A stretch of DNA of 64,000 nucleotides from Anaerolineae bacterium (lineage in GTDB: Bacteria > Chloroflexota > Anaerolineae > UBA7937 > B3-Chlor): NCBI GenBank assembly GCA_034411995.1, contig DAOUME010000022.1:3965-67964 (forward strand). The letters run 5' to 3'. Below the pieces are notes generated by a model, which did not search any database, was not told where the DNA came from, and worked only from the letters and a program-made list of their open reading frames with translations. The first letter of the stretch is position 1; each line of letters begins with the position of its first letter. The position numbers were made by a program, and so were the translations under genes. Shown here one piece after another: positions 1,910-44,031 of this stretch.

Positions 1910-3070
1910 GTGGAACAACTCTTGGCTGACATCAATGCTGTGGCTGGCGTGAAGGGGTCCTTCGTATGCGACGTAGACGGCGCGATAGTGGCGCGAGCCC
2001 TACCCGCATCCCTCGATGAGACCAGAATCCTGCCTGCCGCTCGTACCATTCTGCAAACCATCGACGGATTGGAAACCACCAGACGGCGCAAGGTCCAGGA
2101 ATTGGACATACTCTTTCGCGACGCACGGATGGTCGTCAAGAACCTGCGTGTAGGCTGCCTGTACGTCGTCTGCGCGCGCAACATCAATGTCCCCCTGCTG
2201 AACTTGACGGCCAACCTGTCGGCGAAGAAGCTGGCCGAGATGCTGAAGGAGCCAGAGTCGGAAACCGCCGGCCCTCCAGCGGTAGCAGTGGCCGCGGAGA
2301 AAGCCGCAACGCTCGAGGAGGTCCCCACCGGAGACCCCTCCGTCTTGCTGCTGGCGCGGGCCCACGAGCTCATCGGCGCTGCCTCGCGGAGAGGTATCTG
2401 TCTGCGCCTCCTGGGAGGCATGGCCGTCAAGGCCACGTGTGGGAGCGCGGCCAGCATTTCCCTGCCACCGGAGGGACTCGACCTGGATCTCGCCGCCTAT
2501 GGCAAGGATCGCAAGCAACTGGAACTCGTCATGGAGGAGCTGGGTTATGATCCTCAGCGACGCTTCAACGCCCTGCACGGGCACAGACGCCTCAAGTACT
2601 TTAACGAGGAGCAGGGCCTTGGGCTGGACGTGTTCGTCGATACCTTCCACATGTGTCACCAACTGCCCTTCAGCGATCGCCTGGAGATGAGCGAGTTCAC
2701 GCTGCCCATGGCCGATCTGTTGCTGTCCAAGCTGCAGATAGTGCAGATGGGAGAGAATGACCTTAGAGACATCTACGCCATCTTATGTGATCACGAACTC
2801 GGGCACCTGGGAGACGTGGACAGCGTGGAAGCCAGCTACATCGGCTCCATCTGCAGCGATGACTGGGGCTGGTACAAGACGATCACCCTGAACCTGACCA
2901 AGAGTATAGAGTTGGTAGATGACTTCCTGGCAGACGAGGAGAGGGAGGTTTACGTATCCCGCGCCCGTCAACTCATGCAAGTCATCGAGGCGGTGCCCAA
3001 GTCGCTCCGCTGGCAGGCCAGGGCAAGGATTGGCGAGGCCAGGCGCTGGTACGACTTGCCTGAAGAGTAG
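1910..3070 (+). CDS. Roadblock/LC7 plus nucleotidyltransferase-like fusion protein
   Basis: N-terminus VKGSFVCDVDGAIVARA (Roadblock-like); C-terminal half has a Pol-beta-type NTase signature LLGGMAV...GLDLDLAAY; GTG start after GGAGGGAGG. Confidence 0.6.
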   Translation: MEQLLADINAVAGVKGSFVCDVDGAIVARALPASLDETRILPAARTILQTIDGLETTRRRKVQELDILFRDARMVVKNLRVGCLYVVCARNINVPLLNLTANLSAKKLAEMLKEPESETAGPPAVAVAAEKAATLEEVPTGDPSVLLLARAHELIGAASRRGICLRLLGGMAVKATCGSAASISLPPEGLDLDLAAYGKDRKQLELVMEELGYDPQRRFNALHGHRRLKYFNEEQGLGLDVFVDTFHMCHQLPFSDRLEMSEFTLPMADLLLSKLQIVQMGENDLRDIYAILCDHELGHLGDVDSVEASYIGSICSDDWGWYKTITLNLTKSIELVDDFLADEEREVYVSRARQLMQVIEAVPKSLRWQARARIGEARRWYDLPEE

Positions 3071-5187: not shown

Positions 5188-5835
5188 TCACTCCCCCACC
5201 GCCGTCTCCGTGGCTCTCGGCGTGGAGACAGCACCAGGGGTGGCGGGCTCTGCGCTCACCGTCGGTCCCGGTGTATCGGTGGGTGTGGGCGTGGGTTTCT
5301 CGGGCGGCTCGCTGATCAGCCGCTCCAGATCCCCGATGGCGGAGGAGGCCACCAGATAGACTTCGCTGCCCCCTTCTCTTTGTACGTAACTGGAGTAACC
5401 AGCGGGGTTCTTGTTCCCGACCAGGAGTACCTGGCTGCCACCGTCTGCCAGGCCAACCTCCACGCGCAGGGCCGGTTCGGCGAGACCGAAGGCCTCCAGA
5501 TCCACATCCTCCCCCTCCACGACTCTCGTGGACTGCATCTGCGACAGGCTCCCCAGGAGCCCCTCAATCCGCGTCGCATCCGCCTCGGCCTCGAGAGGCG
5601 CGGTCAAACGCCACATCCCCTCCGCAAGCCTCCGGACCATCACCGATTCGCTGCTCCTCTGATCGGTCACCTCCAGCGTTACGGCGTCTTCCACTTCGAA
5701 AGAAAACACGGGTACTCTACCCTCTTCCTCGGGCGCCGTCTCCTGGCCGCCCCTCATCTCCAGCACGAAGACCAGTGCCGCCAGGACCACGAAGACGGCC
5801 ACCACTATGATCGTAGTTCGCTGGTGTAATCTCAT
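5188..5835 (-). CDS. DUF4340-like membrane-anchored protein
   Basis: Single N-terminal TM helix and Pro/Thr-rich tail; sits after the GldG-like gene as usual; ATG 5835 lies 5 nt after the upstream stop. Confidence 0.6.
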   Translation of the reverse strand: MRLHQRTTIIVVAVFVVLAALVFVLEMRGGQETAPEEEGRVPVFSFEVEDAVTLEVTDQRSSESVMVRRLAEGMWRLTAPLEAEADATRIEGLLGSLSQMQSTRVVEGEDVDLEAFGLAEPALRVEVGLADGGSQVLLVGNKNPAGYSSYVQREGGSEVYLVASSAIGDLERLISEPPEKPTPTPTDTPGPTVSAEPATPGAVSTPRATETAVGE

Positions 5836-27646: not shown

Positions 27647-30600
27647 TTGGTGGCTCAAGAGGATCGCCCACAGGCAACCGCCCCGCCGGAGAGCCGTCGG
27701 GAGATCGAGGGTCTCGTCCAGCGCTTCGCCCGCAACCGCGACGTGTACACCCGCCCCGACTACAAAGAGACCCAGGTCCGCGTGGAGTTCATCGACCCCT
27801 TCTTCGAGGCCCTGGGCTGGGACGTGCGCAACGTCAAAGGGTACGCGGAACAGTACAAGGACGTGGTCCACGAGGACGCCATCAAGATCAGCGGGGCCAC
27901 CAAGGCCCCCGACTACTGCTTCCGCGTGGGCGGGGTGAGGAGGTTCTTCCTGGAGGCCAAGAAGCCCTCCACCGCGGTCAAGGGTGAGGTAGGCCCGGCC
28001 TACCAACTGCGCCGCTACGCCTGGAGCGCCAGGCTGCCCCTCAGTCTGCTCACCGACTTCGAGGAGCTCGCCGTCTACGACTGCCGCCAGCGGCCCCGGC
28101 CCACCGACAAGGCTGGCGTGGGCCGGGTGATGTATTACACCTTCGACCAGTACCTGGAGCGCCTGGACGAGATCTACTCCATCTTCGCCCGGGAATCGGT
28201 CCTCAAAGGCTCCTTCGACCGGTACGTGGAGGACACCAAACGCCAGCGCGGCACCAGCGAGGTGGACGTGGAGTTCCTCAAGGAGATCGAGGGCTGGCGC
28301 GACGAGCTGGCCCGCAACCTGGCCCTGAGGAACCCCCAGCTCTCCGTCCACGAGCTGAACTTCGCCGTGCAGCGCACCATCGACCGCATCATCTTCCTGA
28401 GGATGTGCGAGGACCGGGGCATCGAGAGGTATGGCGGCCTGCTGGGCCTGACCGCCGGTCCCCACGTCTACGACCGTCTGGGGGAGCTGTACCGCGAGGC
28501 CGATCAGAAGTACGACTCCGACCTCTTCGACTTCCAGGCGGACAGACTGACCAGGTCCCTCTCCCTCGACGACAAGACCCTCAAGCCCATCCTCTCCGGC
28601 CTGTACTACCCCGACTGCCCCTACGAGTTCTCCGTGCTCCCCCCGGAGATCCTGGGCCAGGTGTACGAGCAGTTCCTGGGCAAGGTCATCCGCCTCACCG
28701 CGGGCCACCGGGCCAAGGTGGAGGAGAAGCCGGAGGTGAAGAAGGCGGGCGGCGTGTACTACACCCCCTCCTACATCGTGGAGTACATCGTCCAGCAAAC
28801 GGTGGGTCGCCTCATCGAAGGCAAGACGCCCCAGCAGATCTCCAAGCTGCACATCCTGGACCCCGCCTGCGGCTCCGGATCGTTCCTGCTGGGCGCTTAC
28901 CAGCACCTGCTGGACTACCACCGGCGCTGGTACGAAGAGCACGACCCGGAGAAGTACGCCACGGCCAAGCGCCCCGCCCTGTACCAGGGCCGCGGGGGCG
29001 AGTGGCGGCTGACCACGGGGGAGAAGAAGCGCATCCTGCTCAACAACATCTACGGCGTGGACATCGACCGCCAGGCGGTGGAGGTGACCAAGCTGAGCCT
29101 GCTGCTCCAGGTGCTGGAGGGAGAGAGCCAGGAGACGTTGGGCCAGCAGTTGAAGCTGTGGCGGGAGAGGGCCCTGCCCGACCTGGGGGAGAACATCAAG
29201 TGTGGCAACTCCTTGATCGGCCCGGACTACTTTGAGGGGCAGTTGCTGCCCGACGAGGAGGAGATGCGCCGGGTGAACCCCTTCGACTGGGAGAAGGAGT
29301 TCCTCCAGATTATGAAGGCGGGCGGCTTTGACGCGGTCATCGGGAACCCGCCCTACATCCGCATCCAGAGGATCGAGCATAGCGTGGCGGACTACCTCTT
29401 CCGCTCCTATCGGGCTCCGACAAGCAAGACCGACCTCTCTCTGGTGTTTCTTGAGCGCGCTCTGGCCCTAGCAACGGACAGCGGACTTGTCGGCTTCATA
29501 TGCACGTCTCAGTGGCTGTCGACAGACTACGGGCGGAACATGCGGGCCATGCTGTCCGATGGGCGACTTCACCAAGTGGTCGACTTCGGCTCCCTGCCAG
29601 TCTTCCAGAAAGCCAATACATACCCTGCGATCCTGATCCTGAGCCCGACCCGATGCGACGCCCTTGCGCTTAAGCGGATCCGGCGAGGTGAACAGCTGAA
29701 CCTGCCGGGCATCCAAGCTACCGATCCGGTCTTGATCGATCTGGATGGACTATCGGACGACCCATGGAACCTTGGGCGTTTGGATATACCAACGCTGCTC
29801 GGCGAGCGCGGGCTCGAATGGAGACCGCTCAGCGCGTACGCGAACGCGTACATCGGAGTCCTGACCGGCATGGACAGGGCCTTCGTCGTCGAGACGAGGG
29901 CTGCCAAGCAACTCCAGTTGGAGACGGACCTGCTCTTGCCGTACGCGTACCGAGGGGCCGAAGTCCAGCGATATGCTCAGGTGGAGCCTGGGGCCCTGGT
30001 GATTTACCCGTACCGTGAAGGGCCAGGGGGCGCGCCGAGGCTCATCCCCGAACCAGAACTGAGGCGGCACTACCCGAATATCCACCAGCATCTCGTGGCT
30101 CACAAGGATGCTCTGCGTGAGCGAAGAGATAGCCGGAGATTCTACGCGAAGGGGCCAGACTGGTATCGTCACCTGCGCGCGGGCTCCTTCGACTACATTC
30201 ATGCCCGCAAGCTCCTCGTCAAGGGTATTGAGACCCGTACGGTCGTAGGCCTGTTGGACGCGGGGACAGCATTCAATGGCGCGAACTGTCCGGGCGTAAT
30301 CGTCGAAGAGCCACAACAACTCTCGCCTCTCTACATCCTGGGGATCCTCAATTCCGGCGTCATGTCGTATCACCTTCGGATGATCTGCCCGGCGAAGCTA
30401 GGCGGCTACACTAGATTCAATGCTCGCGGCATCAACAGTGCACCCATCCGCACCCTCAGTCGCACAGACCGGGCCGAGGAAGCCCGACACGACAAGATGA
30501 TCGCGCTGGTGGAGCGGATGTTGGACCTGCATGAGAAGCTGGCCGCGGCCACCATCCCCGCCGACAAGAAACTCTACCAGCGTCAGATCGAGGCCACAGA

Positions 30601-30679
30601 TGAGGAGATAGACGCGCTGGTGTATGAGTTGTATGGGTTGACCGAGGAGGAGATCGCTATCGTGGAGGGTCGGGCGTGA
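27647..30679 (+). CDS. type IIG restriction-modification enzyme (fused PD-(D/E)xK nuclease, N6-adenine methyltransferase and specificity domain; Eco57I-like)
   Basis: PDYCF...FFLEAKKP nuclease motif, LDPACGSGSFLL motif I, NPPY at 29345-29356, tail LVYELYGLTEEEIAIVEG; 1010 aa; GAGGAGGAAAG RBS. Confidence 0.9.
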   Translation: MVAQEDRPQATAPPESRREIEGLVQRFARNRDVYTRPDYKETQVRVEFIDPFFEALGWDVRNVKGYAEQYKDVVHEDAIKISGATKAPDYCFRVGGVRRFFLEAKKPSTAVKGEVGPAYQLRRYAWSARLPLSLLTDFEELAVYDCRQRPRPTDKAGVGRVMYYTFDQYLERLDEIYSIFARESVLKGSFDRYVEDTKRQRGTSEVDVEFLKEIEGWRDELARNLALRNPQLSVHELNFAVQRTIDRIIFLRMCEDRGIERYGGLLGLTAGPHVYDRLGELYREADQKYDSDLFDFQADRLTRSLSLDDKTLKPILSGLYYPDCPYEFSVLPPEILGQVYEQFLGKVIRLTAGHRAKVEEKPEVKKAGGVYYTPSYIVEYIVQQTVGRLIEGKTPQQISKLHILDPACGSGSFLLGAYQHLLDYHRRWYEEHDPEKYATAKRPALYQGRGGEWRLTTGEKKRILLNNIYGVDIDRQAVEVTKLSLLLQVLEGESQETLGQQLKLWRERALPDLGENIKCGNSLIGPDYFEGQLLPDEEEMRRVNPFDWEKEFLQIMKAGGFDAVIGNPPYIRIQRIEHSVADYLFRSYRAPTSKTDLSLVFLERALALATDSGLVGFICTSQWLSTDYGRNMRAMLSDGRLHQVVDFGSLPVFQKANTYPAILILSPTRCDALALKRIRRGEQLNLPGIQATDPVLIDLDGLSDDPWNLGRLDIPTLLGERGLEWRPLSAYANAYIGVLTGMDRAFVVETRAAKQLQLETDLLLPYAYRGAEVQRYAQVEPGALVIYPYREGPGGAPRLIPEPELRRHYPNIHQHLVAHKDALRERRDSRRFYAKGPDWYRHLRAGSFDYIHARKLLVKGIETRTVVGLLDAGTAFNGANCPGVIVEEPQQLSPLYILGILNSGVMSYHLRMICPAKLGGYTRFNARGINSAPIRTLSRTDRAEEARHDKMIALVERMLDLHEKLAAATIPADKKLYQRQIEATDEEIDALVYELYGLTEEEIAIVEGRA

Positions 30680-30828
30680 GCGGACGGCGCAGCTGGTCGA
30701 GCCGCACATCCGCTGGTAGGCGCGATGGCCCCGAATCTCGCAATCAGGGCAACCCAATGGGCAGCTAGGTTCGACAGCCGGCCGCGGCCGTGCGGATATT
30801 GGCTGGGCCGGGAGCGCGGAGAGTTGGA

Positions 30829-31656
30829 GTGACCGCAGTTGTAGGCGTAAGTTTCCTCTCGGAAGTCATAATGATCGCAGATACTAGGGTGTCCTGGCCA
30901 GGCGCCCCACGGCCACCAGCAGATATGTTGCGGAAGCTGTACCCGGTCTTTTCGCCGCGAACTCCACAAAAGGCAGCTGTGCTGGGTTTCTCCGGCACAA
31001 TATCGGCGGCCAAAACAGTAATGATACACCTCGTGAAGGACAAGCTTCGCAACTACAATCGGCCCCTGATAATGGTCAATCTGAAAGACCATTTGAAGTG
31101 CTGGATAGAAGAAGTGACGGTGACCTGCCTGAGTCCGAGGAGCAGAACCGGCCTCACCTTCATGCTCTGCGGGCTTGAACCCTCCCGCACTGCTGCTGCA
31201 AGAAAGGGAAACGCGCTCGTGAGGTATAGACAGATCTTGGAAACCCACATATACGTCTTCAGTGTGAGCCAGAGCACCGGCAGAGTAGACGTGGTGAAGA
31301 AAGGCCTCTTCGCCGTCATTGGCTCGGGTGCAACACTCGAGCGAGAGCTGAAACGGAAGATTCCGCCAATGATCAGGTTCGGATTCAACCAGCCGAATCT
31401 GCATTGGGCACGAGCTCGCTTGGTGGGCGAAGTAGCGCGAGGAGTTTTTGACAGCGGCGGCGCAACCACAGTTGGCGGACCGTTTCAAGTGTTCCGCATC
31501 ACAGCAGAAGGCTTGGTCACCGAGTACATCTGGCCGGCAAGTATACAACCAAGAGACGTCAGCGTACGACAAGAAGGCCAAAAGACCATAATACAGAATC
31601 GAGACCTCAACCAGACTTACACGCTCCATCCCATATGGGACCTGCCATTGCAGTAG
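30829..31656 (+). CDS. proteasome-beta/HslV-like Ntn (threonine) hydrolase homologue, stand-alone
   Basis: GTG 30829 lies 5 nt after GGAGAG and gives M-TAVVGVSFLSEVIMIADTRVS: Thr1 directly after the initiator, Asp17 in ADTR, Lys35 in RKLYPV, later AVIGSGAT and DSGG...FRITAEG; this order matches the proteasome beta fold. Confidence 0.6.
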   Translation: MTAVVGVSFLSEVIMIADTRVSWPGAPRPPADMLRKLYPVFSPRTPQKAAVLGFSGTISAAKTVMIHLVKDKLRNYNRPLIMVNLKDHLKCWIEEVTVTCLSPRSRTGLTFMLCGLEPSRTAAARKGNALVRYRQILETHIYVFSVSQSTGRVDVVKKGLFAVIGSGATLERELKRKIPPMIRFGFNQPNLHWARARLVGEVARGVFDSGGATTVGGPFQVFRITAEGLVTEYIWPASIQPRDVSVRQEGQKTIIQNRDLNQTYTLHPIWDLPLQ

Positions 31657-31679
31657 TGGGCGAACCAGCAAGTGGCGCC

Positions 31680-31811
31680 GCCACCATCCCCGCTGACAAG
31701 AAGCTCTGCCAGCGCCAGATGGAGGCCACCGATGAGCAAATCGACGCGCTGGTGTACAAATTGTATGGGGTGACGGAGGAAGAGATCGCTATCGCGGAGG
31801 GCCGGGGTTGA
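31680..31811 (+). repeat. remnant copy 2 of the type IIG gene 3' end
   Basis: 132 nt align without gaps to 30548-30679 (19 substitutions by hand count); encodes ATIPADKKLCQRQMEATDEQIDALVYKLYGVTEEEIAIAEGRG-stop with no upstream ORF. Confidence 0.9.
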
Positions 31812-31851: not shown

Positions 31852-33510
31852 TTGCGGCATGACCAGACCGGCCTCCTCTCGCAGAGCGCAAGGCCGGGCA
31901 ATGCAGCGACCGGGGGCATCAGGGGAAATACATTGACAACCATCTCGCAGGGTGAACTGAACAACCTGAGCGTGCTCATCGTGGAAGATGCGCGGCAGGC
32001 TCTGGAGATGCTACTACGGTATCAGCAGAAGTACCGCGACGACATCAATTTCGCCGCGAACAAAGGAGGTTTGCTGATTGACATTGGTAGTCGTCTCGGC
32101 GACACCGGTGTTGTACGGCAGGGCATGGCGTCGATTGATGAGTTGCTGCCGAGGGCTGGTGAGCAATCTCGTCCCCTTCTCCTCTACAATCTAGGCAACG
32201 GGTATATGGCGTTGCACTCCATTGCTCGGCGCCAACCTGGCTTCTCATTCGACCCCGATGACACTAGACTCCGTGAAGCCAAGCGCTGTTACCGCGGCGT
32301 GCTGGGAGGATCAGAGCGTCTTGATGCCAACCAACGCGCTGGACTCCGAGTGAACTATGGCAACTGTCTCGCGAGTCTTGGCCGTTCCCTCGAGGCAATC
32401 CACCAATACGAGACGGCTCTCCGCCACGCGCCCAATCACCCCATGGCATGGGGGAACCTGGGAGTTGAGTTGGAGCGCTTCGCGTTCGTTGGTCAAGACC
32501 CGGCCATCCTGCGGGCTGCGAATGAAGGGCTACTCAGGGCTCTTGCAGATGATAGCCTTGAGCAAATGGGAGAGGATTCGGCGCGCCCCGGTTTCGAAAA
32601 GGCGCAGCAACGTATTGCACGGCTGTTGAGCCAGCTTGTAGAAGACGCGGGACTGGGCGGGCCCGAGGTGCCCCAGGCCGCGACACCGTATCATCAAGCG
32701 TACAGCGAGTTCTGTGTGAAGCATGAACTCTTCCTGAATTTCTGTCTGAAGGGCCGCCCATGCCAGCGGGTGGCTGAAGATGCTGTCAGTTTGTCAATTA
32801 CCACGCCACTTGATGACGAGACGACCTACCCTCGGCTCGCACGAGTGGTCAACGAGATCAAAGAACGATACGCGGTCGCCCGCCTACTGCTGTTCGAAGC
32901 CTGCAATCCGCCTCTTGACACTCAGCCATATGACGAGATGACCTACTACGCGGACAATCTCGACTACGCCGTATACGGGATTGGTCCCACCAAGCTGAAG
33001 CTGGCCTTTGAAAGTGCCTACAACATCTTGGACAAGCTGGCCTTCTTCGTCAACGACTATCTCGATCTGGGGATCAAGGTGCGGCTGGTGAGTTTTCAGG
33101 GGCTATGGAAGGAGCGCAAGACGGCCGCTCTCAGGCCTGCGATTGTCGAACGTGGTAATTGGCACCTGTATGGCCTGTACGACCTCTCCAAAGACCTAGC
33201 ACCGACAGGCTACCTTGAGCACCTGCGGCTCACCCGAGACTATCTAACACACCGCTATCTGGTGCTCCATGTTGAGGGGCTAGATTGGCTAACGTCCGCC
33301 GATGGTCCTGGGTACCACTCGGGCTACCGCCAGTTGCTGACCAACACGATCGAATTGATGCGACTCGTCCGCAGTGCGGTCATCTACCTCATCGCCTTCA
33401 TCGACCGAGAGGAGCGCGCGAAACGCCAAGACGGAGAGGGCTCTATTGCACCCATGCGTGTCCCGCCTTATAGGCCTTACCGGTTGGGTCCGCAGGATGC
33501 TCCAATGTAG
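31852..33510 (+). CDS. TPR-repeat protein with C-terminal HEPN-like (Rx4H) domain, LA2681-like architecture
   Basis: TPR-like helices (NYGNCLASLGRSLEAIHQYETALRHAPNHPMAWGNLG); C-terminal RLTRDYLTHRYLVLH (R-x4-H); start uncertain (TTG 31852 or TTG 31933 after AGGGGAAA). Confidence 0.6.
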   Translation: MRHDQTGLLSQSARPGNAATGGIRGNTLTTISQGELNNLSVLIVEDARQALEMLLRYQQKYRDDINFAANKGGLLIDIGSRLGDTGVVRQGMASIDELLPRAGEQSRPLLLYNLGNGYMALHSIARRQPGFSFDPDDTRLREAKRCYRGVLGGSERLDANQRAGLRVNYGNCLASLGRSLEAIHQYETALRHAPNHPMAWGNLGVELERFAFVGQDPAILRAANEGLLRALADDSLEQMGEDSARPGFEKAQQRIARLLSQLVEDAGLGGPEVPQAATPYHQAYSEFCVKHELFLNFCLKGRPCQRVAEDAVSLSITTPLDDETTYPRLARVVNEIKERYAVARLLLFEACNPPLDTQPYDEMTYYADNLDYAVYGIGPTKLKLAFESAYNILDKLAFFVNDYLDLGIKVRLVSFQGLWKERKTAALRPAIVERGNWHLYGLYDLSKDLAPTGYLEHLRLTRDYLTHRYLVLHVEGLDWLTSADGPGYHSGYRQLLTNTIELMRLVRSAVIYLIAFIDREERAKRQDGEGSIAPMRVPPYRPYRLGPQDAPM

Positions 33511-33544: not shown

Positions 33545-33598
33545 GTGCTAGTGTATGAGTTATATGGGTTGACCGAGGAGGAGATCGCGATTGTCTGA
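33545..33598 (+). repeat. remnant copy 3 of the type IIG gene 3' end
   Basis: GTGCTAGTGTATGAGTTATATGGGTTGACCGAGGAGGAGATCGCGATTGTCTGA = (V)LVYELYGLTEEEIAIV-stop. Confidence 0.85.
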
Positions 33599-33631
33599 AG
33601 GGCTTCCTCAGCGCAGAGAGTAGGCTGTAGC

Positions 33632-34135
33632 ATGATTCAGCCTTGGAGCGACCCCATACCGTACGACCTATCCCGCACGCTGCGTCGGGCAAGTGTCCCG
33701 CCGGGGTTCAGCAGTAGTGTGCCGCAGACTCCGGGTACGTACGTGATCTATTGCACCGCTCAACCAGACCTATGTGAAGCTATCATTGATATCGGAGAAG
33801 CTGGCCCGCGCGCCAAAGCGAGACCAAAGGGCCTCCGAGGGAGGCTGGCAACTACAGTTGCCCACACGGCCTCTGAAAGGATGGCCGCTGACGTACAGGC
33901 CGGCAAACTCCCGAACAGACTCCGTGTAGTTTGGATCGAGAGGCCGTCCAAAGAGGACGCCAAGGAGTTACAGGACGCACTTATCAGCCTCTTCCGAACG
34001 GATTGCGGACGCCAGCCGCGACACAACAAGAGACTGGAGCAGCACCCAAAGCCTGAGGCCTTCCTGGCGATTTGCGCCGCCCTGAAGAGGCACATTGGCG
34101 GCCTATTGCGCCACCCGACGGCCCGCTGCGGGTGA
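33632..34135 (+). CDS. GIY-YIG-like nuclease domain protein
   Basis: PGTYVIY...IIDIGEAG...GLRGRL...H...VVWIERPSKEDAKELQDALISLF...P.HN follows the GIY / YIG / R / H / E / N order of GIY-YIG domains. Confidence 0.45.
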   Translation: MIQPWSDPIPYDLSRTLRRASVPPGFSSSVPQTPGTYVIYCTAQPDLCEAIIDIGEAGPRAKARPKGLRGRLATTVAHTASERMAADVQAGKLPNRLRVVWIERPSKEDAKELQDALISLFRTDCGRQPRHNKRLEQHPKPEAFLAICAALKRHIGGLLRHPTARCG

Positions 34136-34244
34136 CCAGACCGGCGTGCCCCAGGTTGGAGTGAGCGCTGCCCCCCGGCGGGCTCAGCCCGAGGGGGCCG
34201 GGGGCAAATCGTTCGGTGCAACAGCAGAATCAAAGGAGGAGGAG

Positions 34245-34691
34245 ATGTCTGAGTTGCTCACTGCTATCGGCGTCGTATCAGCCGCTAGTGTGTCGATCCT
34301 TAGTGTCTTTGTCCCTTCTTACTACGACAGGCAGCACCGCAAGGAGGAGAAAGCCGACGCCGAACTCCGAAGAATAGACGAGACTACCTTGGGTTTTCTA
34401 GCACAGCTCTCGAACTTCCGGCATTGGGAACCCAGGAGCCTTCAGAAGATCGCGGGGGATCGTGCACTAGAGCATCTCTACACCGACTTGCAGGTAGCGC
34501 AGTATGCTTGGGAGCGCGCCGTTTGGCCAAAACTGGGTGATCAAGACCGCGCCAAGGTCGAGACCATCCGCACAAGGCTTGAAGGGGTCCATACCGCCAA
34601 CGACCTGTCGAGACGCGCAAATGAGTCGGATGTTCCTGCATTGGCAGATCAAATCCTCGCATTGGCTCGTGCCGCAAATGGACGGCCCTAG
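34245..34691 (+). CDS. uncharacterised protein with one N-terminal TM helix
   Basis: ATG 34245 after AAAGGAGGAGGAG; LLTAIGVVSAASVSILSVFV helix, then a helical soluble part. Confidence 0.5.
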   Translation: MSELLTAIGVVSAASVSILSVFVPSYYDRQHRKEEKADAELRRIDETTLGFLAQLSNFRHWEPRSLQKIAGDRALEHLYTDLQVAQYAWERAVWPKLGDQDRAKVETIRTRLEGVHTANDLSRRANESDVPALADQILALARAANGRP

Positions 34692-34770
34692 TCGACCAAG
34701 TGTGTTTGGTTTTGGTGTACAGTGTGCACTGACGCACAGCTGCTTCGGCCCAACAATGGCTTGACCCCAT

Positions 34771-34849
34771 GGGGAGATCGACACGTTGGTGTATCACTTG
34801 TATGGGTTGACGGAGGGAGAGATCGCTATCGTGGAGGGGCGATCGCTGA
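34771..34849 (+). repeat. remnant copy 4 of the type IIG gene 3' end
   Basis: Encodes (G)EIDTLVYHLYGLTEGEIAIVEG; a 1-nt indel lies near the former stop. Confidence 0.85.
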
Positions 34850-35029
34850 ACGCGCTGCGCGGACCGGCTACCCCGAAACAGAGTTCGGTGATCTCTCGGG
34901 GCTCGGATGTGGCATGGTGATGGGGACCAACGTTGGGCCACTGCGCCAGTTGAGGTGACTGGGTGGAAAGATGTCCGCATAATCATTAGTTAGCACGCTT
35001 CACGCCGCTGACGCTCGGGAAGGAAAACC

Positions 35030-36085
35030 ATGAGCAAAGAAATCCTAGTGAGAATGGACATACCAATCCCCGCTCACAAAATCGTCAATACACCTGCCAT
35101 GGTTTTCAGCAGGTGGATGCCTCTGGACGAGGATGAGTCTATTGTAGTCCAAGAGGAAAACGCCACCCTGAGGTTATGGTTCGACAGAAGTTGCTGGCAT
35201 AACGTGACTCACGCGGGAGGAGACATACCTAATCACGTGAATGTTCTCGTAGACAAGGTATTCGCAGATGTAACGCTCCGCGACTTGTCTGAGGGTTTAG
35301 TAGACTACATTGAACTCACAGCCACTGAACCTCACCCTCCAGAGAGCCCCTACCAGCAAGAGTACCGGGAGCTAGGACAGAAAGTGTACCTTCTAACTCT
35401 CACCTACCTGAACAGATTGATTAACTACGCACGAAGCATGAAGGGGCAATACTGGCTACAAGAATACCCCCTTAGCGAAGCTGAGGGCCTGTCTACTGTC
35501 AACCTGGCTTTCAAAGCCCGTGTCCTAATCGACTCTGAATGGGTTAGGTGGTTCCCGGATGTCAGGCAGCTAGTTATCGGCAGGGTGGGAGGCTGTCAAG
35601 ACAGAGAGCGTTTCATAGACAAGGACTCCTGGTCACAGGTCAGGAGCTTCATCACATCAAAGCAACGGGCCTCACTTGTCCGGGAACTCCTCGCCGGGGC
35701 AGAGTGGCTCGCTGGAATTGGGCACCGCAGAAGTGCATTGACAGAAGCAATAACAGCACTTGAAGCCGCAATCACCACATTCTCAAACCAGCCCAAAGCA
35801 GAGGAAGCTTTCGGCTCTCTTATTACGGAGAGAATGAACGTGAGCTCACTGAGCAATTGGACTGAAAAGATGGGTTTGTCGGGCACCATTCACTACCTCT
35901 TCCCACTGGTATTCTCTGAAGAGATGATGCCCACCGACATTCTGACAGATTGTCAGGAGGCGATACTAGAGCGCCAGAATGTGGTGCACAACGCTCAGCG
36001 AGATGTTCAGGAAGATAAGCTGTCAGTGTACCTGGAGGCAATTCGCAATATGTGTCGCCTGCTCGAAACTTACCAGCAAACTTAG
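35030..36085 (+). CDS. uncharacterised protein with C-terminal HEPN-like Rx4H motif
   Basis: Visibly AT-richer than its surroundings; GGAAGGAAAA RBS; C-terminal helical region with ILERQNVVHNAQRD (R-x4-H). Confidence 0.45.
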   Translation: MSKEILVRMDIPIPAHKIVNTPAMVFSRWMPLDEDESIVVQEENATLRLWFDRSCWHNVTHAGGDIPNHVNVLVDKVFADVTLRDLSEGLVDYIELTATEPHPPESPYQQEYRELGQKVYLLTLTYLNRLINYARSMKGQYWLQEYPLSEAEGLSTVNLAFKARVLIDSEWVRWFPDVRQLVIGRVGGCQDRERFIDKDSWSQVRSFITSKQRASLVRELLAGAEWLAGIGHRRSALTEAITALEAAITTFSNQPKAEEAFGSLITERMNVSSLSNWTEKMGLSGTIHYLFPLVFSEEMMPTDILTDCQEAILERQNVVHNAQRDVQEDKLSVYLEAIRNMCRLLETYQQT

Positions 36086-36259
36086 TACCTAGTCACGCAG
36101 TCCATCCCGAGAAGAGCGTGGTAACAGGTCGCTGGCGGCGACAGCCCCTGTCGGTGCCAGGCTGCGTGTGGAGCGACGACTCGGCGATACTCCAGGCTAG
36201 CGGAAGAGCGTCGACGAGAAGACTCAGGCACGCGAAATGACCTATCGCTTCTACGAGAA

Positions 36260-36460
36260 TTGTGCGTGCGACCCAAGAAGGCGAAGATACATTTCTCCAA
36301 TTGCAGGTCCTGCAACTACGGATTAGGAAAAAACAAGCACAAGGTGGAAGGGCTTCACGGGAGATGGCACGGCCCATTCTCGACGTTCGAGGAGGCATGG
36401 GACGCAGCACAACACACCGGCAAGAAGCCGACCACCTGCGGCCACTGCAGACCTCGGTGA
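36260..36460 (+). CDS. small CxxC...CxxC zinc-ribbon protein
   Basis: 66 codons: HFSNCRSC...GRWHGPFSTFEEAWDAA...CGHCRP; no clear RBS; TTG/GTG start. Confidence 0.35.
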   Translation: MCVRPKKAKIHFSNCRSCNYGLGKNKHKVEGLHGRWHGPFSTFEEAWDAAQHTGKKPTTCGHCRPR

Positions 36461-36734: not shown

Positions 36735-37478
36735 ATGAGCATTCGTTTACTCGATTGCGCGCCGATGGCTCCCCGGTACCCACGGTGGCACCTGGGGACT
36801 CCCTGTCTGCTCGTCGACACCGACCAGGGCCTCGTTCTCGTCGATACCGGCCTCGGCCTGCACGACTTTCTGGCCCCAGGGCCCCTGGTCCGCCTCTTCG
36901 CGTGGGCTTTGCGCTTCCCTCACGATCCCGAGCACGCCGCCGTGCGCCAGCTCTCGCGCCTGGGCCACGACCCCGAATCTGTCCGGCACATCGTGATGAC
37001 CCACCTCCATTTCGACCACGCCGGGGGCCTTCCCGACTTCCCCCACGCTCAGGTTCACGTACACCGCCGCGAGTACGAGGCCATGCTCCATCCTCGCAGT
37101 CTGCTAGAGCTGGGCTACGATGGCCTCGATTTCGCCCATGGGCCCTCCTGGGTTCTCTACGACCAACCCACCGAGGACTGGCTCGGGTTCGAGGCTTTCC
37201 GGCTGCCCTTCACGCCGGAGATGTATCTCGTCCCACTCTTCGGCCACACCCGCGGCCATTGCGGGGTAGCCATCCAGGACGATGATGGTTGGGTCTTGCA
37301 GTGTGCCGACGCCCTGCCCACGAATGCTGACTTCGACCTCACCCCGCCATGGCTCAACCGTTTGGTGATCGGACCGCACGTTGCCAGGTTGCGGGAGTGG
37401 GCTTGCCGCCATCCCGAAGTTCGCCTGTTGGCCGGGCACATGCGGCACCCTTTCCCCGATCACAAGGGCGAAGTCTGA
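36735..37478 (+). CDS. MBL-fold metallo-hydrolase
   Basis: HLHFDHAGG metal-binding motif, later H and D ligands. Confidence 0.85.
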   Translation: MSIRLLDCAPMAPRYPRWHLGTPCLLVDTDQGLVLVDTGLGLHDFLAPGPLVRLFAWALRFPHDPEHAAVRQLSRLGHDPESVRHIVMTHLHFDHAGGLPDFPHAQVHVHRREYEAMLHPRSLLELGYDGLDFAHGPSWVLYDQPTEDWLGFEAFRLPFTPEMYLVPLFGHTRGHCGVAIQDDDGWVLQCADALPTNADFDLTPPWLNRLVIGPHVARLREWACRHPEVRLLAGHMRHPFPDHKGEV

Positions 37479-37505
37479 GAGTCCCCGGCCGAAGCGGACC
37501 CGACT

Positions 37506-37544
37506 GGAGAAGAGATCGCTATCGTCGAGGGCCGGAATTGCTGA
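37506..37544 (+). repeat. remnant copy 5 of the type IIG gene 3' end
   Basis: GGAGAAGAGATCGCTATCGTCGAGGGCCGGAATTGCTGA = GEEIAIVEGRNC-stop. Confidence 0.8.
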
Positions 37545-37839
37545 ACCGCTGAGGCCAGCTTCGCAAGGCCAGGCCTGACACCCGCCCCTACCAACCCCCC
37601 AGCCCTGCGTGCGGCGGGCCTTTCTTTGCCCAACACAGACTCGCGAAAGAACCTGAGCTCAGCATACACTTGCGGCAGCTAGCCCTTCTGGCGCCACTGA
37701 GTGCCGCCCGGACACAGCCCATTGGCGAGGACAAACGTGCGCCTGAGGCGCCAGATGGCTTGACGGCGCCGAACGATATCCCCATAATCACTAGTTGGGA
37801 GGACACAACAGGAGGGAATATGAAAGAGCGCGAATCAGT

Positions 37840-38832
37840 ATGGGAAGATTGAGAGTCGGCTTGCTGAACAAGAAACGGGGCAACTTTGCACTCGAAGAAA
37901 GGTTCATAGGCCCCGATGGCGTCGTTGATAGGACGAACGCCGAAGCAGAACATCACCAGCGGGCCCTGACCGAAGCCGGTTACGTTGTCCGCCAGATTCG
38001 CTGGGGCCCTGATTTCATCAACGATCTACAGGCTTCCCCAGTCGATCTTGTGTTCAACGTTTCCAGTCTGGTAGAAGCCGCGATCCTCGAAGAATTGCAG
38101 ATACCCTACGTGGGCTCCGATACGTTCACCATCGCCATCGCCACCGACAAATCGCTGGCGAAAAGGCTCTGGCAGCAGGCGGGCCTGCCGACATCGCCTT
38201 TCTGGCTGGCCAGATCGCAGAAGGACTGTGGCCTGTTTGGGGGCATCCCACCCTTCGAGTATCCCCTGTTCGTCAAGCCGGTGGCCGGCCGAGGCAGCGC
38301 AGGGATCGACGACACGTCCATCGTTCACAGCTACGACCAACTGGTCAGCGCAGTTGTGGAAAGGCTGGAGACTATCGGTCAACCAGTCCTCATAGAGAAG
38401 CTGCTGCGGGGCAGAGAAATCACCCTGGGCGTCCTGGGAAATGAGCGCGCAAGGGCCCTTCCTCCATTAGAGATCGCGTATTGCGAGGGGGATGACACAC
38501 TGACTTTCGAGAAGAAAGAGTTGGACAACGATACCTTCCTCTGCCCTGCTCCGCTGACCGCTGAAGAGACCCACACCATGCAGCAATTGGCGCTTCGGGC
38601 CTACCACGTGTTGGGCTTCAGGGACTTTGGCCGAATTGACACGATCTTGACCGACGAAGGGCCGTGCTTGTTGGAGGGGAACACTTTCGCGGGGCTCATG
38701 TGCACACCCAAGGAGAAACCTCGTAGCTATATTGGCTTCATGGCTCGCGCAGAGGGAAAGGACGGCAAGGCTCTGCTGGATGAGATCATGCAGATAGCTA
38801 TCAGGAGACTCAACTTGAAAGCCTGTGATTGA
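37840..38832 (+). CDS. D-alanine--D-alanine ligase family ATP-grasp enzyme
   Basis: Ddl-like order: LRVGLL..., PYVGSD, KSLAKRLW, FVKPVAGRGSAGI, LIEKLLRGREITLGVLG, GRIDTILT...LEGN; start ATG 37840. Confidence 0.8.
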   Translation: MGRLRVGLLNKKRGNFALEERFIGPDGVVDRTNAEAEHHQRALTEAGYVVRQIRWGPDFINDLQASPVDLVFNVSSLVEAAILEELQIPYVGSDTFTIAIATDKSLAKRLWQQAGLPTSPFWLARSQKDCGLFGGIPPFEYPLFVKPVAGRGSAGIDDTSIVHSYDQLVSAVVERLETIGQPVLIEKLLRGREITLGVLGNERARALPPLEIAYCEGDDTLTFEKKELDNDTFLCPAPLTAEETHTMQQLALRAYHVLGFRDFGRIDTILTDEGPCLLEGNTFAGLMCTPKEKPRSYIGFMARAEGKDGKALLDEIMQIAIRRLNLKACD

Positions 38833-38833
38833 G

Positions 38834-39436
38834 ATGTCAGTACCTCGGATAGAGATAGAACTCGACAAACTGAGCCATAACGCCCGCAAGCTGATAGCTC
38901 TATACGGTTCCAAGCGAATCCACATCGTGGCTGTCACGAAGGGGCTCTGTGGCTCTCCCAGGATTGCGAATCCTCTGCTCAAGAGCGGATTCCGCTGCTT
39001 CGGCGACTCACGCACCCCCAACGTACGAGAGCTGCGCGAGGGTGGCATAGATGCGCAATTCACCTTCATCCGCTCCCCCATGCCCAGCCGGGTCGAGCGA
39101 GTGCTCGAATCTGACGACGTAAGTCTCGATACAAAGATCGCCGTTATGCAGCTTCTTGCCGATGAGGCCACCAGATGTGGCAGAAGCCATCGAGTCAGTC
39201 TGATGGTTGGGCTGGCCTATCTACGGGAGGGCATACTACCCTCCGATCTCGAGCCGGTGGTGAAGGGGATCATTGGCATGCAAGGCATGGATCCACTTGT
39301 CTCCGGCAGGCTGCGGGACGATAATCTGCTGGGCTGGGGTAGTGCCCGCCCGTGGGAGGAAAGGGCAGGCCCAGCGTGCTCATCCGCGTGGATCGGCGGA
39401 AGGGTCGCGCCTGATTCTCTCCCTGAGCAGCGATGA
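38834..39436 (+). pseudogene. truncated amino-acid racemase-like (alanine racemase N-terminal domain) gene
   Basis: HIVAVTKGLCG (PLP-Lys context) and MVGLAYLREGI are present, but the ORF is about 200 aa against roughly 350 expected, and the C-terminal 60 aa look non-homologous. Confidence 0.45.
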
Positions 39437-39483
39437 CCTTCGAGCAGTCGAACCGGCGCGGTTCGGAAAGGAGGGCTACACCA

Positions 39484-40512
39484 ATGTCTGCTTCAACCAT
39501 ACTGGGATACGCCGCGAGGGCGGTGGGACAACCGCTCGAGCCCTTCACCTACGAGCCGCCGCCGTTGGACGAACACGACGTGCGGGTTTCTGTCACTCAC
39601 TGCGGCGTCTGCCACACCGACGTCCACGCCATCGACGACTACTACGGAATCACCACCTATCCCTTCGCGCCCGGTCACGAGATCGTGGGCTACGTCTCGG
39701 ATGTGGGCCCGGCAGCGTCCGGCCTGAAGGAAGGGGACAGGGTGGGCATAGGCTGGCAGGGCCGTTCTTGCGGGCAGTGTGAGTGGTGCTTGAAGGGAGA
39801 AGAGCAACTGTGTATGGACATCGTCCAGGCGGCAACCTGGCTCCCCTACGGAGGGTTCTCCTCCTCCGTCGTCGTGGACAGCCGCTTCGCCTACGGGCTC
39901 CCTGACGGTATGCCCTCGGAGATAGCCTCGGTGCTCATGTGCGCCGGGATCACCGTCTACTCTCCCCTCCGCTCCTTCGCCGCGCCACCCTCGCAGAAAC
40001 TCGGCATCGTCGGCGTGGGAGGGCTGGGCCATCTCGCCCTACAGTTCGCCCGCGCCTTCGGCTACGAGGTCACCGCCATTTCCTCGTCCCCAGAGAAGAA
40101 GGAGCAGGCGCTGGCCTTCGGCGCAGACCACTTCGTCGTCTCGGACCAGGCCAGCCTGTCCGAGCTCGAGTTCACCTTCGACCTGCTGCTATGCACCGCC
40201 AGCGGCAAGATCGACTGGGTGCCGCTGCTGGACACTCTGAAGAAGAACGGCAAGATGATCCTCGTCGGCTTCCCCGACGTGGAGCTCAATTCGACCGACC
40301 TGGTGGCGCACCAACTCTCCATCCTCACGTCCTTCCTGGGCAACCGGGCGCGAATGCGGGAGATGCTGTCGTTCGCGCAGGCCCACGGCATTACCCCCGC
40401 CATCGAGCAAATGCCCATGTCGGAGGTCAACGAAGCCCTTCAGAGAGTGAGAGACAACCAGGCCCGCTACCGCATCGTGCTCGTCAACGAGACGGAGAGC
40501 ACAGGGGCCTAG
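39484..40512 (+). CDS. zinc-type NAD(P)-dependent alcohol dehydrogenase (cinnamyl-ADH/YahK-like)
   Basis: GVCHTDVH, GHEIVG, CGQCEWC structural-zinc motif, GVGGLGH; ATG 39484 after GGAAAGGAGGG. Confidence 0.9.
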   Translation: MSASTILGYAARAVGQPLEPFTYEPPPLDEHDVRVSVTHCGVCHTDVHAIDDYYGITTYPFAPGHEIVGYVSDVGPAASGLKEGDRVGIGWQGRSCGQCEWCLKGEEQLCMDIVQAATWLPYGGFSSSVVVDSRFAYGLPDGMPSEIASVLMCAGITVYSPLRSFAAPPSQKLGIVGVGGLGHLALQFARAFGYEVTAISSSPEKKEQALAFGADHFVVSDQASLSELEFTFDLLLCTASGKIDWVPLLDTLKKNGKMILVGFPDVELNSTDLVAHQLSILTSFLGNRARMREMLSFAQAHGITPAIEQMPMSEVNEALQRVRDNQARYRIVLVNETESTGA

Positions 40513-40590
40513 TCCCCCCTTCCCTCACGGGTGATCTGGTCCAGCCAGACTCGCACCATTACTGCTCAGACTACGGCACAGGAGGCCACC

Positions 40591-43882: not shown

Positions 43883-43992
43883 CGACCGCGGCCACGTCGT
43901 AGAAAGTGCAGCGCAAAACGGCAGGTGTCGAATGGATTGTGTTCATAGGGGCGACGGCCCATAAGGCGCTACAGGGCCAGACTCGGGCCACC

Positions 43993-44031
43993 GCTGGAGA
44001 GATCGCTACGGTGGAGGGGCGGGACCGCTGA
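43993..44031 (+). repeat. remnant copy 6 of the type IIG gene 3' end
   Basis: GCTGGAGAGATCGCTACGGTGGAGGGGCGGGACCGCTGA = AGEIATVEGRDR-stop. Confidence 0.75.

Follow-up and report, generated by a model that had tools for sequence, protein, structure and literature searches.

The locus described here is most readily compared with proteins of the HEPN superfamily, whose core is a four-helix up-down bundle that often has a helical insert separating helices 2 and 3 (Anantharaman et al. 2013, PMC3710099). The published definition includes a conserved acidic residue in helix 2 and, directly after the arginine of the Rx4H motif, a residue that is polar and in most cases N, D or H; non-catalytic HEPNs lose this motif (PMC3710099). 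HEPN genes are commonly linked to restriction-modification (RM) systems (PMC3710099), and defence systems consisting of a single HEPN protein are known. It is near the single-protein anti-phage systems DARNA (PD-T7-3), ApeA, and HepS that we group a 351-aa protein encoded in the window, by which we mean the whole 64,000-nucleotide stretch of Anaerolineae DNA that was analysed.

In DARNA the HEPN domain is N-terminal and the C-terminal domain is all-helical and Pds5-like, whereas the 351-aa protein has the reverse order and its extra domain is of alpha/beta type. The anticodon nucleases PrrC and RloC offer a second comparison, since the 351-aa protein, a predicted HEPN-type RNase, is likewise encoded near an RM gene; however, it has no ABC-ATPase domain, and its RM linkage is seen in the window but is not conserved across the 72 family loci compared. 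A third point of comparison lies within the window itself, where a TPR-HEPN_LA2681 protein (31852..33510) is a predicted HEPN effector of the same array, also with low GC3. Its accessory domain is a TPR domain, and an hhalign comparison with the C-domain profile of the 351-aa protein detected no profile similarity (probability 0.4%), on which basis we rejected kinship between the two.

A two-domain protein with a predicted HEPN domain

The gene and the parts of its product are as follows.

34943..35029, + strand: upstream region of the 351-aa gene, with a promoter-like site, a cassette-specific leader of ~40 nt, and a Shine-Dalgarno sequence
35030..36085, + strand: the 351-aa gene, an ORF with an ATG start, member of an unnamed two-domain family (novel N-terminal domain and predicted C-terminal HEPN domain)
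35030..35614, + strand: alpha/beta domain at the N-terminus (residues 1-195), with a proposed sensor or regulatory role
35615..36082, + strand: predicted C-terminal HEPN domain, residues 196-351
Within the HEPN domain: helix 1, residues 216-229; helix 2, 233-252; insert, 255-294; helix 3, 302-320; helix 4, 328-350
35972..35989, + strand: codons of the catalytic-type Rx4H motif R315-Q-N-V-V-H320 (R315, 35972-35974; H320, 35987-35989)

An AlphaFold2 model calculated with an alignment reached a pLDDT of 83.5 for the 351-aa protein and consists of a beta-rich part with a long helix (residues 1-175) followed by an all-helical part (residues 198-350). The full-length pTM was only 0.55, and the arrangement of the two domains relative to each other is therefore uncertain. 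The nearest solved folds to the helical domain are AF0298 (2hsb), TT1696 (1ufb), and the HEPN domain of Csm6 (6tug), and structural matches were also obtained with the HEPN domain of sacsin, HepT-type toxins, AbiA, AbiV, LsoA, and HepS.

An earlier reading of this DNA made from the sequence only (hereafter the sequence-only reading) had noticed an R-x4-H motif in the C-terminal helical region and had proposed a HEPN-type protein. The stretch in question, AILERQNVVHNAQRD, is present and carries R315 and H320, both of which are invariant in a 43-sequence alignment. When residue conservation was counted over the 213 family members of at least 300 aa, R315 was kept in 209 and H320 in 208, with the Rx4H motif retained in about 98%. 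At position 316, directly after R315, 179 of the 213 have Q, N or H and 26 have Gly. Helix 233-252 contains two conserved acidic positions, E245 (99%; 100% counting D and E together) and E239 (94% D or E), and conservation in the same 213 sequences is also high at R234 (96%) and R324 (93%), as well as at Q140 (98%), W142 (95%), and W201 (98%).

These features correspond closely to the published definition. [quoted passage not shown] Because the helix-3 motif, the helix-2 acidic residue, and the helix 2-3 insert all match PMC3710099, we accept the C-terminal half of the 351-aa protein as a HEPN ribonuclease-type domain on the strength of predicted structure and motif. The HEPN proposal of the sequence-only reading thus gains support both from the structural similarity that the comparison recovered and from the combination of superfamily topology with a motif kept in nearly all members.

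Searches by sequence did not connect this protein to a named family. It had no match in Pfam, NCBIfam, PADLOC or PHROGs; no model of PADLOC-DB 2.0, which covers systems published up to 2023 and would include ApeA and the PD-T systems, matched at E <= 1; and PDB sequence profiles gave no match to the full-length protein or to its C-domain. No named Pfam or NCBIfam HEPN family (LA2681, Cthe2314, RiboL-PSP, Apea, AbiV, Swt1, and others) matches the window protein above its curated threshold, and 2 of the 43 alignment members touch HEPN_RiboL-PSP at E 0.009. With no match to Pfam, NCBIfam, PADLOC or PDB sequences, the HEPN assignment rests on predicted structure and the motif.

The protein also differs from the nearest solved HEPN folds in carrying the fused N-terminal alpha/beta domain, for which we found no recognisable relative. 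Conserved positions in this domain are F26, W29, P31, N128-R129, and the stretch K138-G-Q-Y-W-L143.

Distribution and mobility of the family

The sequence-only reading had described the gene as an orphan, a description that does not survive a broader search. A collection of 5.8 billion proteins contained 118 homologues (E down to 1e-199), and an exhaustive phmmer search of 1.84 billion representatives recovered 528 clusters, counted at 50% identity, at E <= 0.001, with 200 at E <= 1e-30. Nearly all homologues are ~350 aa long and align from end to end. Their sources span at least six phyla and include named members from Pyrinomonadaceae, Anaerolineae, Bacteroidales, Burkholderia, Sneathiella, Halieaceae, Polyangiaceae, Obscuribacterales, and Planctomycetales. 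When 185,579 species genomes were scanned with a single peptide pattern, at least 10 matches in six phyla were found, the single pattern making this count a lower bound. The distribution is clearly patchy. Viral and plasmid sources were also searched: tblastn found no homologue in phage or plasmid collections, none was present in the IMG/VR viral contigs scanned, and Foldseek found no match for the 351-aa protein among viral structures. With no homologue in the phage and plasmid collections or viral contigs, this is not a classic prophage-borne defence gene. On the model and the family searches together, we accept the 351-aa proteins as a new, sizeable, unannotated family inside the known HEPN superfamily, with a predicted new accessory domain.

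Genomic context varies widely across the family. When the ORFs lying up to 4 kb from the family gene were all clustered, no neighbour family was common to more than 3 of 72 distinct loci, and the 351-aa family gene therefore stands alone, without a conserved gene partner. In the gene tables of more than 10 loci, too, the family gene is solitary and set off by intergenic spacers of its own. Annotated neighbours include integrases, HNH/Mrr, TIR, kinases, HipA, PemK, HicB, and SymE, together with ordinary metabolic genes. The family gene has a lower GC content than its flanks in 10 of 11 loci.

The same contrast in composition is strong in the window. The sequence-only reading had judged 35030..36085 by eye to be the most AT-rich coding stretch, and the computed GC profile bears this out: with a GC of 0.508 against a window mean of 0.621, the gene falls about 3.9 SD under the mean of the 1056-nt sliding windows and is the minimum among them, the lowest-GC stretch of its own length. 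Its GC3 is 0.577, compared with ~0.85 in the flanking RM and ADH genes. The base composition of the 351-aa gene is foreign to its host.

Two related loci bear directly on how the gene arrived. A metagenomic copy (L010/L011) shares 84% protein and 88% DNA identity with the window gene, and the match is confined to 34990-36135, that is, to the ORF and ~40-50 nt of additional sequence, with different neighbours beyond it. Conversely, a related strain (L009) has 87-90% DNA identity to the window over the Ddl-like and Alr genes, and its syntenic locus has other genes in the place of the 351-aa gene. Horizontal acquisition, which the sequence-only reading had proposed, is well supported by these sequence comparisons because a foreign GC content, a copy with 88% DNA identity in a different context, and absence from the syntenic locus all point to it. 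The dN/dS of the window gene against the L010 copy is 0.31, a sign of purifying selection.

A separate observation concerns the DNA around some family genes. In L010 (3560-3640 and 5027-5108), and also in L028, a GC-rich non-coding repeat of 80-120 nt that contains the palindrome ATGTGCGC..GCGCACAT lies in direct copies on both sides of the family gene. Either a REP-like element spread through the genome or the signature of an insertion may account for this repeat.

A tail-delimited cassette array downstream of a restriction-modification gene

In the window, the 351-aa gene belongs to an array that follows a type IIG RM gene, with these features.

27647..30679, + strand: type IIG restriction-modification enzyme, 1010 aa (Pfam HSDR_N, Eco57I, N6_Mtase, TaqI_C)
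31676-31811, 33547-33603, 34769-34847, 37502-37540, and probably ~43990-44025, + strand: copies of the RM gene tail
30790..31656, 33632..34135, and 34245..34691: cassette ORFs of 288, 167, and 148 aa
31852..33510, + strand: TPR and HEPN_LA2681 gene (Pfam E 4.4e-46; motif RDYLTH), second cassette
34769..34847, + strand: fourth tail copy, left border of segment 4
36237..36460, + strand: small zinc-ribbon gene, a 74-codon frame from ATG 36237, of which the 66-codon ORF 36260..36460 is the remainder
36735..37478, + strand: MBL-fold hydrolase gene (GC 0.653; seven sequences at least 90% identical)
37502..37540, + strand: fifth (short) tail copy, right border of segment 4

The RM protein has weak similarity to PglX models. 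The 3' tail of its gene (30544-30679), which encodes the C-terminal end LVYELYGLTEEEIAIVEGRA and the stop, recurs in direct orientation, and the common core of the copies is roughly GAGATCGCTATCGTGGAGGG. These repeats, corresponding to the last 30-136 nt of the RM gene, are present in at least 5-6 copies over 13.5 kb and delimit cassettes of unrelated genes. Between successive tails lie the 288-aa protein gene; the TPR-HEPN_LA2681 gene; two small unknown proteins; and the 351-aa gene with the small ORF and the MBL hydrolase gene. The last three had been assigned to the fourth tail-delimited segment by the sequence-only reading, and all do fall between 34769-34847 and 37502-37540.

The remaining cargo is largely unannotated. 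The 288-, 167-, and 148-aa proteins had no match in Pfam, NCBIfam or PHROGs, and PADLOC had none for the 288- and 167-aa proteins or for a longer 198-aa reading of the third (34095..34691). Their GC3 is low (0.60-0.67), as is that of the TPR-HEPN_LA2681 gene, a second and unrelated HEPN effector two cassettes upstream of the 351-aa gene. The composition of the MBL-fold gene looks native.

The borders of segment 4 carry traces of how it may have formed. The fourth tail and its ~150-nt spacer, which contains a promoter-like site, are a diverged copy of the fifth tail and the spacer before the Ddl-like gene (34769-34991 versus 37502-37796), and for this reason segment 4 has the look of an insertion with a ~230-nt duplication on its flanks. 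Within this copy, 34943-34991 corresponds to the spacer preceding the Ddl-like gene and the promoter-like sequence GTGACT-17-CATAAT is found at 34955-34983, so that a duplicate of the Ddl promoter region appears to drive the 351-aa gene. A Shine-Dalgarno sequence, GGGAAGGA, follows at 35017-35024, 5 nt ahead of the ATG. Rfam had no match in the region of the 351-aa gene.

A comparable array occurs in L009, where four tails (788-906, 1687-1734, 2886-3052, and 5469-5556) enclose different cargo. One of the cargo genes there encodes DUF3644, with which one family in the 2013 HEPN survey overlaps (PMC3710099). The array context, with its RM gene, the HEPN_LA2681 gene, and the DUF3644 cargo of L009, favours a conflict or defence role for the 351-aa gene.

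Elsewhere in the array, a comparison of window regions 38825..39436 and 39286-40580 with L009 4291..5556 shows that the Ala_racemase_N-like gene encodes 203 aa in the window (38825..39436) versus 364 aa in L009; in the window a zinc-type alcohol dehydrogenase gene (39433..40512) stands in place of its 3' half and a tail copy. This replacement reads as a further sign of cassette turnover. There was no recombinase gene among the examined genes of the array, and a literature search for the tail motif found no relevant description.

The small gene that shares segment 4 has a history of its own. The sequence-only reading had described a 66-codon ORF with two CxxC pairs; the ORF and both pairs (CRSC and CGHC) are present, but the ORF is what a frameshift has left of a 74-codon gene. 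ATG 36237 encodes MTYRFYEN, after which, in a DNA alignment with L009 and L026, a 1-nt deletion in the codon for Trp9 shifts the frame; close homologues begin MTYHxYENW. The same sequence occurs in a second assembly (L001), which may derive from the same sample. The window copy would accordingly be read either as a pseudogene or as a gene that restarts at TTG 36260 or GTG 36266.

As a protein family the zinc ribbon is conserved in relatives, even though the window copy is broken in codon 9. It has homologues P0251-P0253, and a profile search found 67 clusters of ~70-75 aa with the pattern KIHFSxCxxC...WHGPF...CxHC(K/R)P. Synonymous sites are saturated between copies while dN is 0.18-0.30, and the family is therefore under purifying selection. 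The family resembles DUF6233 (PF19746) in small size (~60-75 aa) and in its two CxxC-type pairs, but distant members score 24.9-26.7 bits, under the gathering threshold of 27.6, and the window ORF, P0251, and close relatives have no DUF6233 match. By these scores the family is distantly DUF6233-like.

Could the small ORF be a regulator of the 351-aa gene, as had been suggested? The comparative evidence goes against it. The zinc-ribbon gene is beside no other member of the 351-aa family in the ten other loci compared or in the 72 loci clustered, and it is present in two loci that have no 351-aa gene: L009, where it immediately follows a tail, and L026. We rejected the ORF as a partner or regulator because of this lack of linkage in family loci and the frameshift in the window, and we infer that the zinc-ribbon gene is independent and decayed, with no part in the 351-aa system. 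In L026/L027 (1-8225) it is the last of a row of same-strand genes, most of them unannotated, that lies downstream of McrB and McrC, an island setting that supports a small, independent defence-island gene.

Proposed function and rival explanations

We consider it fairly probable, by analogy with described systems, that the 351-aa protein is a standalone, horizontally mobile HEPN RNase that serves as a single-protein abortive-infection or toxin effector. As in PrrC, RnlA/LsoA, Csm6, HepT, ApeA, HepS, and DARNA, two HEPN domains would come together as a dimer and so create a composite RNase site that is metal-independent. The N-terminal alpha/beta domain would hold this site silent until a cue of infection or stress is sensed, and the activated enzyme would then cut host or phage RNA (tRNA or mRNA), bringing growth to a stop.

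Many HEPN proteins are toxins of toxin-antitoxin (TA) modules, for example HepT and AbiF with its RNA antitoxin, and the 351-aa protein could in principle be the toxin of a TA or addiction module whose antitoxin is an unrecognised small RNA, tiny ORF or host factor, stabilising the cassette rather than acting against phage. In favour of this, 250-900 nt of non-coding DNA often lies upstream at other family loci, and TA genes are frequent neighbours of the family gene. However, neither of the marks of a HEPN-MNT pair or a type III RNA antitoxin was seen: the 72 loci have no conserved adjacent ORF, and there is no tandem-repeat RNA antitoxin and no conserved flanking DNA between loci. In the window only ~40 nt upstream and ~50 nt downstream travel with the gene, and the fused, conserved N-terminal domain better fits autoinhibition. 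We regard a TA module as unlikely. Somewhat less likely still is a PrrC-like guard, which the type IIG RM protein would keep inactive until restriction is blocked by a phage. The position of the gene invites this idea: it shares a strand with the RM gene, 4.3 kb downstream of it, and belongs to an array that also includes TPR-HEPN_LA2681. At least 16 HEPN clades have been reported as R-M linked, with a guard model proposed for them (PMC3710099). Yet the 351-aa gene moves independently of RM genes, with no methyltransferase or restriction neighbour common among the 72 loci and several contexts that have no RM gene among Pfam-annotated neighbours, and in the window it is set apart from the RM gene by three unrelated cassettes.

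Catalysis is absent from some HEPN families, among them MtlR and the domains with which nucleotidyltransferases bind substrate (PMC3710099), and the 351-aa protein, which has no defence-database match, might be a non-catalytic or housekeeping HEPN with no role in conflict, engaged in ligand or nucleotide binding or in RNA processing. Against this stands the retention of Rx4H throughout almost the whole family, whereas non-catalytic HEPNs lose it, and a gene that is patchily distributed, foreign in GC, set in variable contexts, and missing from a related strain is poorly suited to housekeeping; we give this explanation about the same low standing as the guard. Least probable by a wide margin is a DNA-repair nuclease with a NurA-like (RNase H-fold) N-terminal domain. 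Its basis is one member, P0060, whose residues 67-165 match Pfam NurA at 24.6 bits (cut-off 21) and which is named 'DNA double-strand break repair nuclease NurA' by NCBI; this protein, from Burkholderia sp. USMB20 (WP_135801015.1; L002/L014), bears the name in UniRef as well. We rejected the assignment, as the partial Pfam match is seen in 1 of 43 members and the marks of NurA nucleases, an RNase H-like fold with conserved acidic catalytic residues and a HerA partner, were not recovered together. Since the name depends on that partial match, it is probably wrong.

The array raises the further question of how such genes are gathered. The unrelated genes bordered by the tail copies include several HEPN effectors. 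In at least one case the RM tail is repeated together with ~150 nt of downstream, promoter-bearing spacer. A tentative idea, which we put forward as possible though doubtful, is that the array is a cassette-capture system in which the RM tail is a portable recombination site, and that the N-terminal domain of the 351-aa protein would then be a new infection-sensing module. On this reading, cassettes would enter by Campbell-type homologous integration of circular molecules or through a recombinase acting in trans. If true, the array would be an integron-like exchanger of defence genes that operates without an integron integrase.

A further HEPN family will not surprise a specialist, and the tail-delimited array, which suggests how restriction genes gather second-line effectors, is a more unusual feature than the family itself. 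The 351-aa family is nevertheless a good experimental target. Its members are invisible to Pfam, NCBIfam, PADLOC, and PHROGs, and recognition of the predicted HEPN domain gives them a testable function. The family adds a candidate single-gene immune or toxin system, and its N-terminal domain is a new putative sensor whose trigger may now be sought.
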